From NCBI RefSeq assembly GCF_003334355.1, contig NZ_QOWP01000009.1: a stretch of DNA of 64,000 bases. One strand, given 5' to 3'. Shown one piece after another: positions 4,941 through 38,287 of this stretch. A model generated the notes under the pieces. That model had not been told where the DNA came from, did no database searches, and worked only from the letters and a program-made list of their open reading frames with translations. Each line of letters starts with the position of its first letter. The stretch's first letter is position 1. Source of the stretch: Escherichia coli (GTDB lineage: Bacteria > Pseudomonadota > Gammaproteobacteria > Enterobacterales > Enterobacteriaceae). Position numbers and translations under genes: made by a program.

Positions 4941-7358
<2,418 letters not shown>

Positions 7359-31928: not shown

Positions 31929-34481
31929 TCAGAACAATTCCTGTGCCTCGCCATTATCGATAATGGTCGTTCCCACCTCGTGCACTGCCTGTTGTGTCGG
32001 CTGCGTACCTTCGATGAAATACTCTTCGCGGCTGTTGCCACCATTAGCTAACTGCCCGGTGCTGCGATCGATATTCACCGTCACAATACCCGGTGGCGGC
32101 GTCAGCGGCTGCTCCGGCACACCTTCAAGAACGGCTTTCATATAAGCGTCCCATGCAGGCTGGGCACTCTTGGCACCGCCTTCGTAACCTGAGATCTGAT
32201 CTTTAATCGCTCCGGAAGCCGTTGTATGACCGAGATTACGACGGTGATCATCAAAGCCAATCCAGACCGAGGTCACAACGCCCGGACCGTAACCCGAGAA
32301 CCACGCATCTTTCGAACTGTTAGTGGTCCCGGTTTTCCCGCCGATATCGCGACGCTGCAAATCACGACCTGCACGCCAGCCAGTACCCTGCCAGCCTGGC
32401 TCACCAAAGATATTGGTGTTCAAAGCACTCTTAATCAGGAATGCCAGCGGAGTGTTGATGACGTGCGGTGCGTACTCCTGCGCGCCAGTCTTCGCCACTA
32501 ACGCCTGATTTGCCTGCTCCAGCTGCGGCATTGGTACAGAAACATTCTGCTGCTCGCGGGAGATAGCGACATCTTCAACATCGTTATTTTCCAGCACGTT
32601 CGATTTCTGCGTATCACCGTAAATCACCGGAATATCGCATTCCGGGCAGGCTACTTTCGGTTTCGCTTCGAAAATCACGCCGCCCTGATCGTTTTCAATT
32701 TTGCTGATAAACCACGGGTCCACCAGGAAGCCGCCGTTCGCCATGACCGCGTAGCCGCGCGCCACCTGCATTGGGGTGAAGGACGCTGAACCCAGCGCCA
32801 GCGATTCGGTGTGGACAATGTTTTGTGCCGGGAAGCCGAAGCGTTGCAGATATTCTGCAGCGTAGTCGACGCCCATCGCCCGCATTGCGCGTACCATCAC
32901 CACGTTTTTCGACTGACCCAGCCCCTGACGTAAGCGAATTGGACCGGCATATTGTGGCGGCGAGTTCTTCGGCTGCCAGTCAGAACCGGCACCTGCATCC
33001 CAGCGGGAAATTGGCACATCGTTCAACATACTTGCCAGCGTCAGACCTTTATCCATCGCCGCGGTGTAGAGGAACGGTTTGATGTTGGAACCCACCTGAC
33101 GCAGTGCCTGGGTGGCGCGGTTAAACTTGCTCTGATTGAAATCAAAGCCACCGACCAGCGCCATAACGGCACCATTTTGCGGATTGATCGACACCAGCGC
33201 CGAGTTCACTTCCGGCACTTGTGCCAGCCACCATGCATCGCCGACCTGACGAACCCAGATTTGCTGTCCCGTTTGCAGAACATCGGTCACTTTACGCGGC
33301 GTCGGTCCCTGCTGAGTATCCGAACGGTAAGGACGCGCCCAGCGAACGCCGTCCATACTCAATGCGACAGTCGACCCGTCCGCCAGCATTGCCGTCGCTT
33401 CCTGAGGATTGGCGCTGGTGACTGCGGCAGGCAGCAGCGGACCATAGGTCGGCAGCGCCTTCAGCGTATCGGTAATCTTGTTGTTATCCCACGCCGACTC
33501 GCCCACTTTCCACAGCACATTTGCCGGGCCGCGATAGCCGTGGCGCATGTCGTAGTCCAGCACGTTATTACGTACCGCCTGCTGCGCGGCCTGCTGCACT
33601 TTGCGGGTGATGGTGGTGTAAATGCGATAACCGTCTTCATAGGCACTTTCGCCATAACGGTTATACATCTCCTGGCGCACCATTTCGCTCAGGTACGGCG
33701 CAGAGAAAGCAATCTCCGGCGCGTGATAGTTAGCGTTAATCGCCTCAGTGCGTGTCTGATCGAACTGTTGTTGGGTGATATACCCTTCATCCAGCATCCG
33801 CGACAGCACGACGTTACGCCGCGCGACGGCACGATCCATCGAGTAGAGCGGGTTGAAGGTGGAAGGCGCTTTCGGCAGCCCGGCTATCACCGCCATTTCG
33901 TTCAGCGTCAGTTGGTCGACCGTTTTTCCGAAATAGACTTGTGCCGCAGCACCGACACCATAGGCGCGGTAACCAAGGTAAATCTTGTTCAGATAAAGCT
34001 CGAGGATCTCGTCTTTCGTCAGCAGCTGTTCAATGCGAATCGCGAGGAAGACTTCCTTAATCTTACGCATCAGCGTGCGTTCTGGACTGAGGAAGAAGTT
34101 TCTCGCCAGCTGCTGGGTAATGGTACTTGCCCCTTGTGACGCGTGACCGGAGAACAGCGCCACGCTTGCTGCACGGAAGATCCCCACCGGGTCAACGCCG
34201 TGATGCTCGTAGAAGCGGCTGTCTTCTGTCGCGATAAAGGCTTTCACCATCTCCGGTGGGATTTGATCCAACGTAACCGGAATACGACGTTTCTCACCGT
34301 ATTGAGCAATCAGCTCGCCATCGGCGCTGTAAATCTGCATCGGAATTTGCAGGCGAACATCTTTTAATGTCGCCACATCCGGCAGTTGTGGCTCGATGTA
34401 GCGGTATAGGCCATAAATCGAGCCTGCTCCCAGCAGAATGCAACAGACTGCAAGGATCAAAAAATACTTTACGAACTTCAC
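31929..34481 (-). CDS. mrcA: Penicillin-binding protein 1A (bifunctional transglycosylase/transpeptidase)
   Basis: Glycosyltransferase motif 'EDSRFYEHHGVD', transpeptidase 'KTGT'. The 850-aa form as I recall it starts at the GTG at 34479-34481; an in-frame ATG lies 8 codons upstream at 34505. Confidence 0.93.
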   Translation of the reverse strand: MKFVKYFLILAVCCILLGAGSIYGLYRYIEPQLPDVATLKDVRLQIPMQIYSADGELIAQYGEKRRIPVTLDQIPPEMVKAFIATEDSRFYEHHGVDPVGIFRAASVALFSGHASQGASTITQQLARNFFLSPERTLMRKIKEVFLAIRIEQLLTKDEILELYLNKIYLGYRAYGVGAAAQVYFGKTVDQLTLNEMAVIAGLPKAPSTFNPLYSMDRAVARRNVVLSRMLDEGYITQQQFDQTRTEAINANYHAPEIAFSAPYLSEMVRQEMYNRYGESAYEDGYRIYTTITRKVQQAAQQAVRNNVLDYDMRHGYRGPANVLWKVGESAWDNNKITDTLKALPTYGPLLPAAVTSANPQEATAMLADGSTVALSMDGVRWARPYRSDTQQGPTPRKVTDVLQTGQQIWVRQVGDAWWLAQVPEVNSALVSINPQNGAVMALVGGFDFNQSKFNRATQALRQVGSNIKPFLYTAAMDKGLTLASMLNDVPISRWDAGAGSDWQPKNSPPQYAGPIRLRQGLGQSKNVVMVRAMRAMGVDYAAEYLQRFGFPAQNIVHTESLALGSASFTPMQVARGYAVMANGGFLVDPWFISKIENDQGGVIFEAKPKVACPECDIPVIYGDTQKSNVLENNDVEDVAISREQQNVSVPMPQLEQANQALVAKTGAQEYAPHVINTPLAFLIKSALNTNIFGEPGWQGTGWRAGRDLQRRDIGGKTGTTNSSKDAWFSGYGPGVVTSVWIGFDDHRRNLGHTTASGAIKDQISGYEGGAKSAQPAWDAYMKAVLEGVPEQPLTPPPGIVTVNIDRSTGQLANGGNSREEYFIEGTQPTQQAVHEVGTTIIDNGEAQELF

Positions 34482-34600
34482 TGGAAATTTCCCATTTAGT
34501 TTCATTTGGGCAGTTTATAAACAAACGCGCGGTAGTATAAAGGCAAGCCAGACGCATTGATATACCCGTCAGAGTGACGGGTGATAAGGAGATCATCACA

Positions 34601-35380
34601 ATGGCATTTAAGATCTGGCAAATTGGTTTGCATTTACAACAGCAAGAAGCGGTAGCGGTTGCGATCGTGCGGGGCGCAAAAGAATGCTTTTTGCAACGCT
34701 GGTGGCGGTTGCCGCTGGAGAACGACATTATCAAAGATGGGCGGATTGTTGATGCGCAGCAGCTGGCTAAAACGTTGTTACCGTGGAGTCGCGAACTGCC
34801 GCAGCGTCATCACATTATGTTGGCGTTTCCCGCCAGTCGCACATTACAGCGGTCATTTCCGCGCCCGTCGATGTCCCTTGGTGAGCGGGAGCAAACGGCC
34901 TGGCTGTCAGGGACGATGGCCCGCGAGCTGGATATGGATCCGGACTCCCTGCGCTTCGATTACAGCGAAGACTCACTCAGTCCCGCCTATAACGTGACTG
35001 CCGCGCAAAGCAAAGAGCTGGCAACGCTGCTTACTCTGGCAGAAAGGTTGCGTGTTCATGTGAGCGCGATCACCCCGGATGCCAGTGCATTACAGCGATT
35101 CCTGCCTTTTTTACCTTCTCATCAGCAATGTCTGGCCTGGCGTGATAACGAACAGTGGCTGTGGGCGACGCGCTATAGCTGGGGGCGCAAACTGGCGGTG
35201 GGGATGACTAGCGCGAAGGAGCTGGCGGCAGCGTTATCCGTTGATCCCGAAAGCGTCGCGATATGTGGCGAAGGCGGATTTGATCCCTGGGAGGCCGTTT
35301 CTGTTCGTCAGCCGCCGCTACCGCCGCCAGGTGGAGACTTTGCCATCGCGCTGGGGCTGGCGCTTGGGAAGGCGTACTGA
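34601..35380 (+). CDS. hofM: Type IV pilus / DNA-uptake assembly protein HofM (PilM-like)
   Basis: 259 aa from the ATG at 34601 (MAFKIWQIGLHL...); stop overlaps the hofN start (TGATG). Confidence 0.88.
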   Translation: MAFKIWQIGLHLQQQEAVAVAIVRGAKECFLQRWWRLPLENDIIKDGRIVDAQQLAKTLLPWSRELPQRHHIMLAFPASRTLQRSFPRPSMSLGEREQTAWLSGTMARELDMDPDSLRFDYSEDSLSPAYNVTAAQSKELATLLTLAERLRVHVSAITPDASALQRFLPFLPSHQQCLAWRDNEQWLWATRYSWGRKLAVGMTSAKELAAALSVDPESVAICGEGGFDPWEAVSVRQPPLPPPGGDFAIALGLALGKAY

Positions 35381-35919
35381 TGAACCCGCCAATTAATTTT
35401 TTGCCCTGGCGACAGCAACGCCGGACCGCTTTTCTGCGTTTCTGGTTGCTGATGTTCGTTGCGCCTCTGCTGCTGGCCGTCGGGATAACGCTAATACTGC
35501 GTCTGACAGGCAGCGCCGAAGCGCGCATAGACGCCGTTTTGCTTCAGGCGGAACAACAACTCGCCCGCAGCTTACAGATAACGAAGCCACGTTTGCTGGA
35601 GCAACAGCAGTTACGCGAACAGCGTTCGCAACGGCAGCGCCAGCGACAATTTACCCGCGACTGGCAATCTGCGCTGGAAGCACTGGCGGCGCTTTTACCC
35701 GAGCACGCCTGGCTGACAACGATAAGCTGGCAGCAGGGAACGCTGGAGATCAAGGGGCTGACAACAAGCATTACCGCGTTAAACGCACTAGAAACGTCAC
35801 TCCGCCAGGATGCATCTTTTCATCTCAATCAGCGGGGAGCCACGCAGCAGGATGCGCAGGGACGCTGGCAATTTGAGTATCAGTTAACAAGGAAGGTTAG
35901 CGATGAACATGTTCTTTGA
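35380..35919 (+). CDS. hofN: HofN (PilN-like)
   Basis: 179 aa; N-terminal TM helix; overlaps hofO by 17 nt. Confidence 0.85.
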   Translation: MNPPINFLPWRQQRRTAFLRFWLLMFVAPLLLAVGITLILRLTGSAEARIDAVLLQAEQQLARSLQITKPRLLEQQQLREQRSQRQRQRQFTRDWQSALEALAALLPEHAWLTTISWQQGTLEIKGLTTSITALNALETSLRQDASFHLNQRGATQQDAQGRWQFEYQLTRKVSDEHVL

Positions 35920-36343
35920 CTGGTGGTTCGCCACATCACCCCGCCTCCGCCAGCTTTGCTGGGCATTCTGGTTGCTGATGTTAGTTACGCTCATTTTTCT
36001 GTCATCGACACACCATGAAGAGCGCGACGCATTAATTCGACTACGGGCAAGTCATCACCAGCAGTGGGCCGCACTGTATCGCCTGGTAGACACCACTCCC
36101 TTCAGCGAGGAAAAAACGCTGCCCTTTTCGCCACTGGATTTTCAGTTATCCGGCGCGCAACTGGTTTCCTGGCATCCATCCGCGCAGGGAGGCGAGTTGG
36201 CGTTGAAAACGCTGTGGGAAGCAGTGCCGTCGGCATTTACACGGCTGGCAGAGCGCAACGTCAGCGTGAGCCGTTTTTCGTTAAGCGTGGAAGGTGATGA
36301 TCTTTTGTTCACGCTACAACTGGAGACGCCGCATGAGGGTTAA
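35903..36343 (+). CDS. hofO: HofO (PilO-like)
   Basis: 146 aa; N-terminal TM helix. Confidence 0.85.
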   Translation: MNMFFDWWFATSPRLRQLCWAFWLLMLVTLIFLSSTHHEERDALIRLRASHHQQWAALYRLVDTTPFSEEKTLPFSPLDFQLSGAQLVSWHPSAQGGELALKTLWEAVPSAFTRLAERNVSVSRFSLSVEGDDLLFTLQLETPHEG

Positions 36344-36737
36344 ACGCTGGTTGTTGGCAGGTATTGCATTGTGCCTTTTAACCGGTATGCGTGACCCTTT
36401 TAAACCGCCGGAAGATCTATGCCGGATTAGCGAACTTAGCCAGTGGCGCTATCAGGGGATGGTAGGGCGAGGCGAGCGCATCATCGGTGTAATAAAAGAC
36501 GGGCAAAAGAAATGGCGACGGGTGCAGCAAAACGATGTGCTGGAAAACGGCTGGACAATTTTACAGCTGACGCCAGACGTACTAACGCTGGGTACCGGGA
36601 CAAACTGCGAACCGCCACAATGGTTGTGGCAACGGCAAGGAGATACAAATGAAGCAATGGATAGCCGCACTACTGTTGATGCTGATACCCGGCGTACAGG
36701 CGGCAAAGCCGCAAAAAGTGACGCTGATGGTGGATGA
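36333..36737 (+). CDS. hofP: HofP (PilP-like lipoprotein)
   Basis: 134 aa from the ATG at 36333 (MRVKRWLLAGIALCLLTGM...); 3' end overlaps hofQ by 89 nt in another frame. Confidence 0.8.
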   Translation: MRVKRWLLAGIALCLLTGMRDPFKPPEDLCRISELSQWRYQGMVGRGERIIGVIKDGQKKWRRVQQNDVLENGWTILQLTPDVLTLGTGTNCEPPQWLWQRQGDTNEAMDSRTTVDADTRRTGGKAAKSDADGG

Positions 36738-37887
36738 CGTTCCGGTAGCTCAGGTGTTGCAGGCGCTGGCTGAACAGGAGAAGTTGAACCTGGTCGTGTC
36801 GCCAGACGTCAGCGGTACGGTGTCGTTACATCTAACAGATGTTCCCTGGAAGCAGGCACTACAAACTGTAGTGAAAAGCGCCGGACTGATAACGCGGCAG
36901 GAAGGCAACATTCTCTCAGTGCATTCCATTGCCTGGCAGAATAACAATATCGCCCGCCAGGAGGCGGAGCAGGCGCGGGCGCAGGCAAATCTGCCGCTGG
37001 AAAATCGCAGTATAACCCTGCAATACGCCGACGCGGGAGAACTGGCGAAAGCGGGGGAGAAGCTACTGAGTGCCAAAGGGAGTATGACCGTCGATAAACG
37101 CACCAATCGCCTTTTGCTACGAGATAACAAAACGGCGTTAAGCGCGCTTGAACAGTGGGTAGCGCAAATGGATCTGCCGGTCGGGCAGGTTGAGCTGTCG
37201 GCGCATATTGTCACCATTAATGAAAAAAGTTTGCGTGAGTTAGGCGTGAAATGGACGCTGGCCGATGCGCAACACGCTGGTGGCGTTGGGCAAGTCACCA
37301 CGCTTGGTAGCGACCTCTCCGTAGCGACGGCGACAACGCATGTCGGTTTTAACATTGGGCGCATCAACGGACGCTTGCTGGATCTTGAGCTTTCCGCGCT
37401 CGAACAAAAACAGCAGCTGGATATTATCGCCAGTCCGCGTCTGCTGGCCTCACATCTTCAGCCTGCCAGCATTAAACAGGGGAGCGAAATTCCATATCAG
37501 GTTTCCAGCGGGGAAAGTGGCGCGACGTCGGTGGAATTTAAAGAGGCCGTCCTGGGGATGGAGGTCACGCCCACGGTGTTACAAAAAGGTCGCATCCGGC
37601 TGAAATTACACATCAGCCAGAACGTTCCGGGGCAGGTGCTACAGCAGGCCGATGGCGAAGTGCTGGCGATTGATAAGCAGGAGATCGAAACGCAGGTCGA
37701 GGTCAAAAGCGGAGAAACGTTGGCGCTGGGCGGCATTTTTACCCGTAAAAATAAATCGGGTCAGGATAGCGTACCGTTGCTTGGCGACATTCCCTGGTTC
37801 GGGCAATTATTTCGTCATGACGGAAAAGAAGATGAACGACGCGAGTTAGTGGTGTTTATCACGCCACGACTGGTTTCCAGTGAGTAA
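36649..37887 (+). CDS. hofQ: Secretin HofQ (PilQ/ComE-like outer-membrane channel)
   Basis: 412 aa; signal peptide 'MKQWIAALLLMLIPGVQA'; secretin C-terminal domain. Confidence 0.9.
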   Translation: MKQWIAALLLMLIPGVQAAKPQKVTLMVDDVPVAQVLQALAEQEKLNLVVSPDVSGTVSLHLTDVPWKQALQTVVKSAGLITRQEGNILSVHSIAWQNNNIARQEAEQARAQANLPLENRSITLQYADAGELAKAGEKLLSAKGSMTVDKRTNRLLLRDNKTALSALEQWVAQMDLPVGQVELSAHIVTINEKSLRELGVKWTLADAQHAGGVGQVTTLGSDLSVATATTHVGFNIGRINGRLLDLELSALEQKQQLDIIASPRLLASHLQPASIKQGSEIPYQVSSGESGATSVEFKEAVLGMEVTPTVLQKGRIRLKLHISQNVPGQVLQQADGEVLAIDKQEIETQVEVKSGETLALGGIFTRKNKSGQDSVPLLGDIPWFGQLFRHDGKEDERRELVVFITPRLVSSE

Positions 37888-38287
37888 ACAGCCGTAAAAG
37901 CGGTAATGTTTTTACGCTGAACGTGTTTCATCTATTTGACGCGCGCAGGTATTTAGCATACAAGGAGTACCGATTTGAGAGTTGGTGCTCTTCGCTGCCT
38001 GCGTTCCATGATGATGATTTATCATTCAGGCGGCATTTTGCTGTCTTTTTTACGCTAATCTTACCCGGTGATTTATCGCCAGAGCGGTGGTAGCAAGGCA
38101 GCGCGCTTGCAGCGACCAGATATGCAGAGGGATGGGTGATTTATTCAGTTGCCAAACCCGCTGGAGTATTGAGATAATTTTCAGTCTGACTCTCGCAATA
38201 TCTTATGAGGTTTCAGTTCATGTCCTGCGGCGCTCTCTGAGCGAAGCGGGTTTATCATTAACGAATAGTCTTAGTAGTACCGAAAAA

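Follow-up and report, generated by a model that had tools for sequence, protein, structure and literature searches.

The hofMNOPQ operon of Escherichia coli is maintained by selection, and its 89-nt hofP/hofQ overlap is very probably a by-product of the hofQ signal-peptide codons

The type IV pilus genes pilMNOPQ of Pseudomonas aeruginosa, Neisseria meningitidis, Myxococcus xanthus and Vibrio cholerae occur in the same five-gene order as hofMNOPQ of enteric bacteria, and the comABCDE genes of Haemophilus influenzae are described as orthologous (PMC1635313). We analysed hofMNOPQ in a 64,000-nt stretch of an Escherichia coli contig (NZ_QOWP01000009.1; the whole stretch is called the window below), where the operon occupies positions 34601-37887. 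According to the papers on comABCDE, from which our comparison is drawn, both operons are controlled by Sxy together with cAMP-CRP, have CRP-S sites that overlap the upstream open reading frame (ORF) and are needed for DNA uptake; two weak CRP-S sites were predicted for Enterobacteriaceae as against one in Pasteurellaceae (PMC1635313). For yrfD, the former name of hofM, two CRP-S sites were predicted and the binding of CRP was weak but specific by electrophoretic mobility shift assay (EMSA); Sxy induces the gene 16-fold with an absolute requirement for CRP and cAMP, and the operon is otherwise transcribed poorly or undetectably (PMC1635313). Sxy-induced natural transformation is abolished in a hofQ::kan mutant (Sinha & Redfield 2012, PMC3330819), and no natural inducing condition is known for E. 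coli sxy (PMC3330819). To assemble PpdD pili in E. coli, the published design uses cloned hofMNOPQ in combination with hofBC, ppdAB-ygdB-ppdC and gspO (bioRxiv 10.1101/856302). Furthermore, hofQ mRNA was reported to be increased with DNA as nitrogen source (PMC9273947) and with the stationary-phase small RNA FimR2 (PMC9723502). That the operon is cryptic in the laboratory and functional when induced is established knowledge; the cryptic status had also been assumed in an earlier reading made from the letters of the stretch (the sequence-only reading), and is borne out by the literature (PMC1635313).

The locus is the chromosomal hofMNOPQ (formerly yrfDCBA-hofQ), the already known enterobacterial counterpart of pilMNOPQ and Haemophilus comABCDE. 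Its features in the window are as follows.

34601-35380, plus strand: hofM, uninterrupted ORF, 259 aa; predicted cytoplasmic actin-like protein of the PilM/GspL type
35380-35919, plus strand: hofN, uninterrupted ORF, 179 aa; PilN homologue
35903-36343, plus strand: hofO, uninterrupted ORF, 146 aa; protein at the position of PilO
36333-36737, plus strand: hofP, uninterrupted ORF, 134 aa
36333-36647, plus strand: hofP core, codons 1-105; N-terminal hydrophobic helix followed by a predicted PilP/GspC-type HR beta-domain
36648-36737, plus strand: hofP tail, codons 106-134 and the TGA at 36735-36737; spans hofQ codons 1-30
36637-36642, plus strand: hofQ Shine-Dalgarno sequence AAGGAG, 6 nt before the ATG and embedded in HofP codons Q102-G103-D104
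36649-37887, plus strand: hofQ, 412 aa; PilQ-type secretin without AMIN domains, signal peptide in codons 1-18 (36649-36702)

A purine-rich Shine-Dalgarno sequence precedes every one of the five genes, and the starts and stops are the same in the RefSeq/PGAP annotation of K-12 XL1-Blue. The genes hofM and hofN share the TGATG at 35378-35382 (1-nt overlap), hofN and hofO overlap by 17 nt, hofO and hofP by 11 nt (36333-36343), and hofP and hofQ by 89 nt in different frames, the offset (36649-36333) mod 3 being 1. The five same-strand ORFs, the TGATG and the overlaps of 17 and 89 nt had been described in the sequence-only reading, and the ORF list and the sequence agree with those coordinates exactly; the 11-nt overlap had been missed. 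The statement that all frames are intact holds for the window but not for every strain, knock-outs being found elsewhere. ORF integrity and overlap lengths were compared in 80 species-representative loci of Enterobacteriaceae, of which 48 have the 17-nt overlap of hofN and hofO.

The 89-nt overlap is very probably a by-product: hofP reads through the signal-peptide codons of hofQ, and the resulting tail is tolerated without selected dual coding. This high confidence is held for the best explanation as a whole, comprising the known identity of hofMNOPQ, its regulation, the coupling of its genes and the overlap as a by-product. The hofP gene has no stop before the hofQ start, and its frame continues across the signal-peptide codons until the GAT-GAY of the sequence "VDD" gives TGA. 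Every codon in the hofP frame takes its first base from position 3 of one hofQ codon and its other two bases from the start of the next, and a stop in that frame requires A or G at hofQ position 2, which is absent from the codons of L, I, V, M, F, A, P and T and from most of those of S. Since no hofQ codon whose second base is T or C can complete a stop, the hofP frame mostly stays open as far as VDD. Only the dicodons A19-K20, V28-D29 and D29-D30 are able to make a hofP-frame stop here, and the actual TGA of hofP is formed by the T of GAT and the GA of the following GAC within the conserved V-D-D motif of HofQ. The variability of the sites was recorded as well: among the signal-peptide codons variability is lowest at hofQ position 2, the same base as hofP position 3, and within codons 19-29 of hofQ it is highest at hofQ position 3.

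As a null model, HofQ residues 1-60 were recoded synonymously with the local codon usage, 2000 times for each of 77 loci. The overlap is no longer than expected by chance once hofQ is fixed, because recoding of HofQ alone reproduces it: the simulated median of 89 nt equals the observed median, and the mean P(sim>=obs) is 0.57. Cross-genus identity of the tail was 0.287 versus 0.207 under the recoding null, an excess of +0.080, and the phantom-frame control, made with 29-codon windows in the rest of hofQ where no gene overlaps, gave an excess of +0.082 +/- 0.036. Judged in this way, the HofP tail shows no conservation beyond that of the phantom frame in the rest of hofQ, and protein-level constraint beyond that of hofQ is unsupported. 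The invariant and near-invariant columns of HofP are all at or before G103, and the tail is devoid of conserved columns; the motif C-E-P-x-x-W-x-W-x-R-[EQ]-G closes the conserved core, and its final codons encode the hofQ Shine-Dalgarno sequence. In addition, the AlphaFold2 (AF2) predicted local distance difference test score (pLDDT) is <50 for HofP residues 108-134, the overlapped part, and the last 29 residues are predicted to be disordered. The significance that the sequence-only reading had implied for the overlap is not sustained, since the tail appears unconstrained by the recoding null, the phantom frame, the conserved columns and the pLDDT alike.

The length of the hofP/hofQ overlap is 89 nt in 34 of the 80 loci and between 80 and 98 nt in 61. 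Shorter overlaps were found in two loci (4 nt), in three Phytobacter/Kosakonia isolates (38 nt) and in six loci with Raoultella and Pseudocitrobacter isolates among them (59-62 nt), and longer ones of 122-140 nt in Kluyvera ascorbata and one Enterobacter.

Several points weigh against the explanation of the overlap as a by-product and against its regulatory part. A few of the short overlaps come from metagenome-assembled genomes, and two values additional to those listed above (locus L050, 62 nt; locus L039, 68 nt) may be due to the automated choice of the hofQ start. Codons 2-30 of hofQ reach 0.84 of the synonymous diversity expected (P ~1e-4, column resampling), and the low diversity is concentrated at I5 (ATA in 54/57) and D29 (GAT in 72/78). 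Selection may act weakly on the tail or on the site at which hofP ends, the latter being the most that we would conclude; constraints on the 5' end of the mRNA are a plausible cause of the low diversity of early hofQ codons. None of the 17 Asp columns exceeds D29 in its GAT fraction (0.92), but D245 comes close with 0.91. The CRP-S sites, moreover, are weak and escape a search for the strict consensus: TGCGA-N6-TCGCA with <=2 mismatches gave 30 matches versus 50 expected by chance, none of them near hofM, and scoring of CRP-S half-sites was likewise uninformative. Two candidate signs of selection were considered and rejected. A strongly reduced synonymous rate (dS) in hofQ codons 1-29, obtained with the Nei-Gojobori method (NG86), was set aside as evidence of selection on the tail, the degeneracy-matched ratio being only 0.84 and the phantom frame having removed the protein-level signal. 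The retention of GAT at D29 as a selected hofP stop was unconvincing, with D245 nearly equal (0.92 versus 0.91).

The start of hofQ, on which the extent of the overlap is reckoned, was examined in turn. Secretins need a signal peptide, and the N-terminus of HofQ, MKQWIAALLLMLIPGVQA followed by AKPQ, is by inspection a canonical one with cleavage before the A. Position 36649 is the earliest possible start in the hofQ ORF and is conserved among orthologues. The protein matches the NCBIfam HofQ model NF007851 with 855 bits (cut-off 598), the alignment spanning its entire length of 412 residues (1-412). On sequence grounds the start at 36649 is secure, because it is the first start in the ORF, has a well-spaced Shine-Dalgarno sequence and a signal peptide, is aligned with the HofQ model from residue 1 and is conserved in orthologues. 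Initiation downstream of the hofP stop, which the sequence-only reading had named as evidence that would speak against its view, is implausible: the later in-frame methionines M11 and M27 are still within the overlap, and a start there would destroy the signal peptide.

Outside the overlap the operon was compared at several phylogenetic depths. The 3.6-kb hof region was detected in 5426/5426 complete E. coli genomes with 97.2-100% identity. The same search returned 5429 matching places, one of them on a plasmid record and not a chromosome. Knock-outs were sought in all 20 records of the more divergent half of an evenly spaced E. coli sample; 14 were fully intact, three O157 or Shiga toxin-producing E. 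coli (STEC) records had a 1-bp deletion in hofM, and three were true knock-outs, namely a 14-bp tandem duplication in hofP of strain PE164, hofN W10* in strain 100117 and the loss of most of hofQ through rearrangement in E. coli CNR20180903 (locus L002). In the 4.28-Mb reduced genome of CNR20180903, only 49 codons of hofQ (6286-6396 of the locus) remain before a junction with a truncated barA, which points to a large rearrangement or deletion. The O157/STEC deletion is at the equivalent of 35353 (locus L004, O157 AR-0427) and is labelled "frameshifted" by PGAP; it replaces the last 7 residues of HofM alone, and the product then has 264 aa, its frame running 17 nt into hofN. Since the exact allele occurs in 288/5426 complete genomes, the deletion is a marker of the O157/STEC lineage, and a rewrite of the C-terminus rather than a knock-out.

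Among the 80 species loci all five ORFs are near full length in 69, and about half of the other 11 loci end before the operon does. In the type strain of Escherichia albertii, NBRC 107761 (locus L008, 3255-4086), the frame of hofO is stopped at codon 70 and that of hofP at codon 34; hofQ is intact, with a product 97% identical to E. coli HofQ and a ratio of nonsynonymous to synonymous substitution rates (dN/dS) of 0.02. The secretin may thus be retained though its partners are lost, as in this strain. The dN/dS values below were obtained with the Nei-Gojobori method against eleven relatives, one noisy within-species value for hofO (1.68, dS=0.02) being omitted.

hofQ (mature part): dN/dS 0.02-0.09
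mrcA, aroB and aroK: dN/dS 0.02-0.07
hofM: dN/dS 0.08-0.24
hofN: dN/dS 0.12-0.37
hofO: dN/dS 0.17-0.42
hofP core: dN/dS 0.03-0.29

Cross-genus identity is 67-98% for HofQ, and for HofM to HofP 30-68% outside Escherichia. Because dN/dS is low, at housekeeping level for hofQ and also well below 1 for hofM to hofP, these ratios indicate that the operon is maintained by purifying selection with occasional lineage-specific loss, the secretin being far more constrained than its partners. The comparison of dN/dS gene by gene, proposed as a check in the sequence-only reading, thus gave values well below 1 for all five genes, with hofQ resembling the neighbouring housekeeping genes; the accumulation of inactivating mutations, which that reading had set against its own view, was found to be sporadic only.

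Three other explanations were weighed against the by-product. The overlap could be truly dual-coding, with both frames selected and the C-terminal 29 residues of HofP functional, e.g. in contact with HofQ or peptidoglycan. The recurrence of overlaps of 80-98 nt in 61/80 species loci, the extension of the Pfam HofP model across the tail, and the synonymous diversity of 0.84 of expectation with GAT at D29 in 92% are consistent with such a role. The tail is nevertheless conserved only as much as the phantom frame in other parts of hofQ, recoding of hofQ alone yields the overlap length, the tail lacks conserved columns and is predicted to be disordered, and in other genera with otherwise intact operons it is cut to 4-62 nt or lengthened to 122-140 nt; we consider dual coding quite unlikely. 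To the same degree we doubt that the overlap acts at the level of RNA or translation, where termination of hofP 89 nt into hofQ would tune initiation and the HofP:HofQ ratio and FimR2 might add to the effect. The Shine-Dalgarno sequence and ATG of hofQ are indeed within translated hofP sequence, the overlap shows mild synonymous constraint, and FimR2 was reported to raise hofQ mRNA (PMC9723502). In the 300 nt on either side of the hofQ ATG, the FimR2 seed (UUCAGGGACGUCAUUACG) is predicted to pair best at 36729-36744 (-18.1 kcal/mol), across the hofP TGA and hofQ codons 28-32; 5/106 background windows, however, pair with the seed equally well or better, which makes this a weak lead, and the operon persists in genera whose overlap is 4 nt or 38 nt, so that a long one is dispensable.

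According to the remaining explanation the operon is a decaying evolutionary relic and its intactness in the window is incidental. The true knock-outs in 3/20 sampled E. coli records (PE164, 100117 and CNR20180903), the nonsense codons in hofO and hofP of the E. albertii type strain and the poor expression in the laboratory (PMC1635313) would fit decay. Against this stand the presence of the operon in all 5426 genomes, dN/dS far under 1 for the five genes and at housekeeping level for hofQ, the retention of gene order, overlaps and starts in ~70 species, an ultra-conserved upstream region, and the experimental phenotype of hofQ (PMC3330819); the common O157 "frameshift", moreover, rewrites only the last 7 residues of HofM. 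Decay is the least probable of the explanations, and we give it hardly any credence. The overlap as a by-product in an operon kept by selection is the reading that we prefer.

By analogy with homologous systems, the five proteins of this operon would have the following roles. HofM would be a cytoplasmic actin-like protein that binds the N-terminus of HofN; HofN and HofO would be bitopic inner-membrane proteins forming a periplasmic heterodimer; and HofP would be a periplasmic HR-domain protein whose HR domain docks on the N0 domain of HofQ. HofM, HofN, HofO and HofP would together be the alignment sub-complex that joins the inner-membrane pilus motor to HofQ, and PpdD pili and incoming DNA would pass through this outer-membrane secretin. 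Start codons at or inside the end of the previous gene, a feature kept across Enterobacteriaceae, would provide translational coupling and fixed subunit ratios. In laboratory culture the operon is nearly silent, and its promoter, with weak CRP-S sites inside mrcA, needs Sxy and cAMP-CRP (PMC1635313).

The sequence-only reading had named PilM/N/O/P-like proteins and a secretin, and these identities stand by hidden Markov model or predicted fold, that of HofM with PilM at the level of fold only and that of HofO with PilO putatively, by position; none of HofM, HofO and HofP reaches threshold in the sequence models of PilM, PilO and PilP. HofQ scores 449 bits (cut-off 284) with the PilQ model TIGR02515 and 195 bits with the GspD models. 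Its residues 22/23-409/410 align to solved PilQ chains of V. cholerae (6w6m, E=2e-74) and P. aeruginosa (6ve2, E=4e-65), and residues 27-182 to the periplasmic domains of Aggregatibacter HofQ (2y3m). The AMIN region is missing: only ~22 residues precede the aligned part, whose counterpart begins at PilQ residue 158 in Vibrio and at 322-338 in Neisseria. This is a difference of the subfamily and no exclusion from the PilQ/HofQ secretins.

The AF2 model of HofM has a pLDDT of 89.5, and in Foldseek it matched PilM of P. aeruginosa (5eq6/5eou) with E=3e-14 and TM scores of 0.66-0.73, and cyto-GspL with E=5e-12. Sequence models of PilM remained below threshold (TIGR01175, 16 bits with a cut-off of 133; PF11104, i-E 0.047), and a HofM profile reached M. 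xanthus PilM with E=2e-4. As modelled, HofM is a shortened PilM/GspL actin-like fold. HofN carries the Pfam PilN domain PF05137 (E=3e-9); its N-terminus reads MNPPINFLPWR, and the N-terminal cytoplasmic stretch MNPPINFLPWRQQRR is followed by the transmembrane helix FLRFWLLMFVAPLLLAVGITLIL. The N-terminal motif of PilN binds PilM, as seen in the PilM:PilN structures 2ych and 5eou. The only match of HofO was the Pfam HofO EspM-like domain PF25319 (E=2e-25), and PilO models gave no match. For HofP, the fold search predicts a PilP/GspC HR beta-domain of the type that binds the secretin N0 domain; the protein matches Pfam HofP and not Pfam PilP, and a profile search of the PDB with HofP failed to connect it to PilP (E=1.5). 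Residues 2-16 form a helix in the AF2 model, and the orthologue alignment shows no conserved lipobox cysteine in the N-terminal hydrophobic segment, C16 being confined to Escherichia. HofP is probably helix-anchored and GspC-like. Two other cysteines of HofP, C30 (36420-36422) and C92 (36606-36608), are invariant in all 37 aligned orthologues and are probably joined as a disulfide bond of the periplasmic HR domain.

The operon is flanked by mrcA on the minus strand, which ends at 34505, and aroK on the plus strand, from 38288. Besides the genes, the following features were located around it.

34325-34450, plus strand: published yrfD (hofM) promoter fragment with two weak CRP-S sites, from the EMSA primers of Cameron & Redfield 2006 (PMC1635313)
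34421-34570, no strand assigned: ultra-conserved block covering the 5' coding end of mrcA and the mrcA-hofM intergenic spacer
37891-37904, plus strand: weak terminator-like hairpin just 3' of the hofQ stop, with a 5-bp stem

The yrfD EMSA primers correspond to 34325 and 34429-34450, which places the fragment within mrcA coding sequence, at a distance of 150-275 nt upstream of the hofM ATG. Candidate CRP-S sites are at 34333-34354 and 34414-34435; the second published CRP-S site is at -246 from the hofM ATG (PMC1635313). Scanning for promoters and terminators gave nothing beyond the shuffled expectation, hairpin-type sites being no commoner than in shuffled sequence, and a scan of the whole window with Rfam gave no matches.

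Column identity in the block 34421-34570 is 0.91-0.97 across 15 genera of Enterobacteriaceae. The block takes in the first ~28 codons of mrcA if the gene starts with the ATG at 34505, or ~20 if it starts with the annotated GTG at 34481, and identity at third codon positions of mrcA is 0.84-0.90 in codons 1-35 versus 0.62-0.68 further in. The start of mrcA on the minus strand is itself ambiguous, the longest ORF beginning with the ATG at 34505 (858 aa) and the RefSeq gene with the GTG at 34481 (850 aa). The block holds one of the candidate CRP-S sites (34414-34435) and a possible plus-strand promoter, TTTATA(34514)-17 nt-TATAAA(34537). It is probably a shared divergent promoter or regulatory region under strong selection. 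A bolder proposal, which we regard as unlikely, is that the block is a bidirectional control module in which Sxy/CRP-S-driven transcription of hofM would run antisense over the start of mrcA, encoding penicillin-binding protein 1a (PBP1a); its basis is the unusual conservation and the published CRP-S positions only. If this were true, induction of the pilus and of DNA uptake would be mechanistically coupled to altered expression of a peptidoglycan synthase. Directly 5' of the hofM Shine-Dalgarno sequence there is a perfect 7-bp inverted repeat, CCCGTCA-GAG-TGACGGG (34566-34582), which might form a hairpin in the 5' untranslated region; the pattern CCGTCA...GACGG recurs in several genera.

The annotation of the operon is at textbook level, and its confirmation adds little. 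The 89-nt overlap, on the other hand, can leave the lists of dual-coding candidates, and it illustrates a general point, that an upstream gene without a stop reads far into a downstream gene for an exported protein; such read-through should therefore be general, because signal-peptide codons generate no stops in the neighbouring frame. The "frameshifted hofM" of PGAP in O157 is a rewrite of the C-terminus, which is relevant to work on the type IV pilus of enterohaemorrhagic E. coli (EHEC). Furthermore, HofQ is at housekeeping-level constraint, and its partners evolve 5-10 times faster.

In comparison with pilMNOPQ, the hof operon is alike in that HofQ aligns with PilQ, HofN has a PilN domain, HofM the predicted fold of PilM and HofP the predicted HR fold of PilP. 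The differences are that HofQ, with 412 aa, has no N-terminal AMIN region, that HofM, with 259 aa, is ~95 residues shorter than PilM (~354 aa) and as near in size to cyto-GspL, and that HofP lacks the conserved lipobox cysteine, whereas PilP is a lipoprotein. Set against GspC-GspL-GspM-GspD of type II secretion, HofQ fits PilQ models far better than GspD models (449 versus 195 bits), HofP has no PDZ or coiled-coil domain, and HofM and HofN are made as two proteins, as PilM and PilN are, in contrast to the fusion in GspL. The overlap of hofP and hofQ has its own parallel in long same-strand overlaps that arise by 3' extension, where a stop is lost or absent, a general class of gene overlap. As in this class, hofP runs into hofQ to the first stop permitted and its extension appears unconstrained; unlike other members, the hofP extension is old and widespread in the family, and it would persist because the structure of signal-peptide codons rules out stops in the hofP frame.

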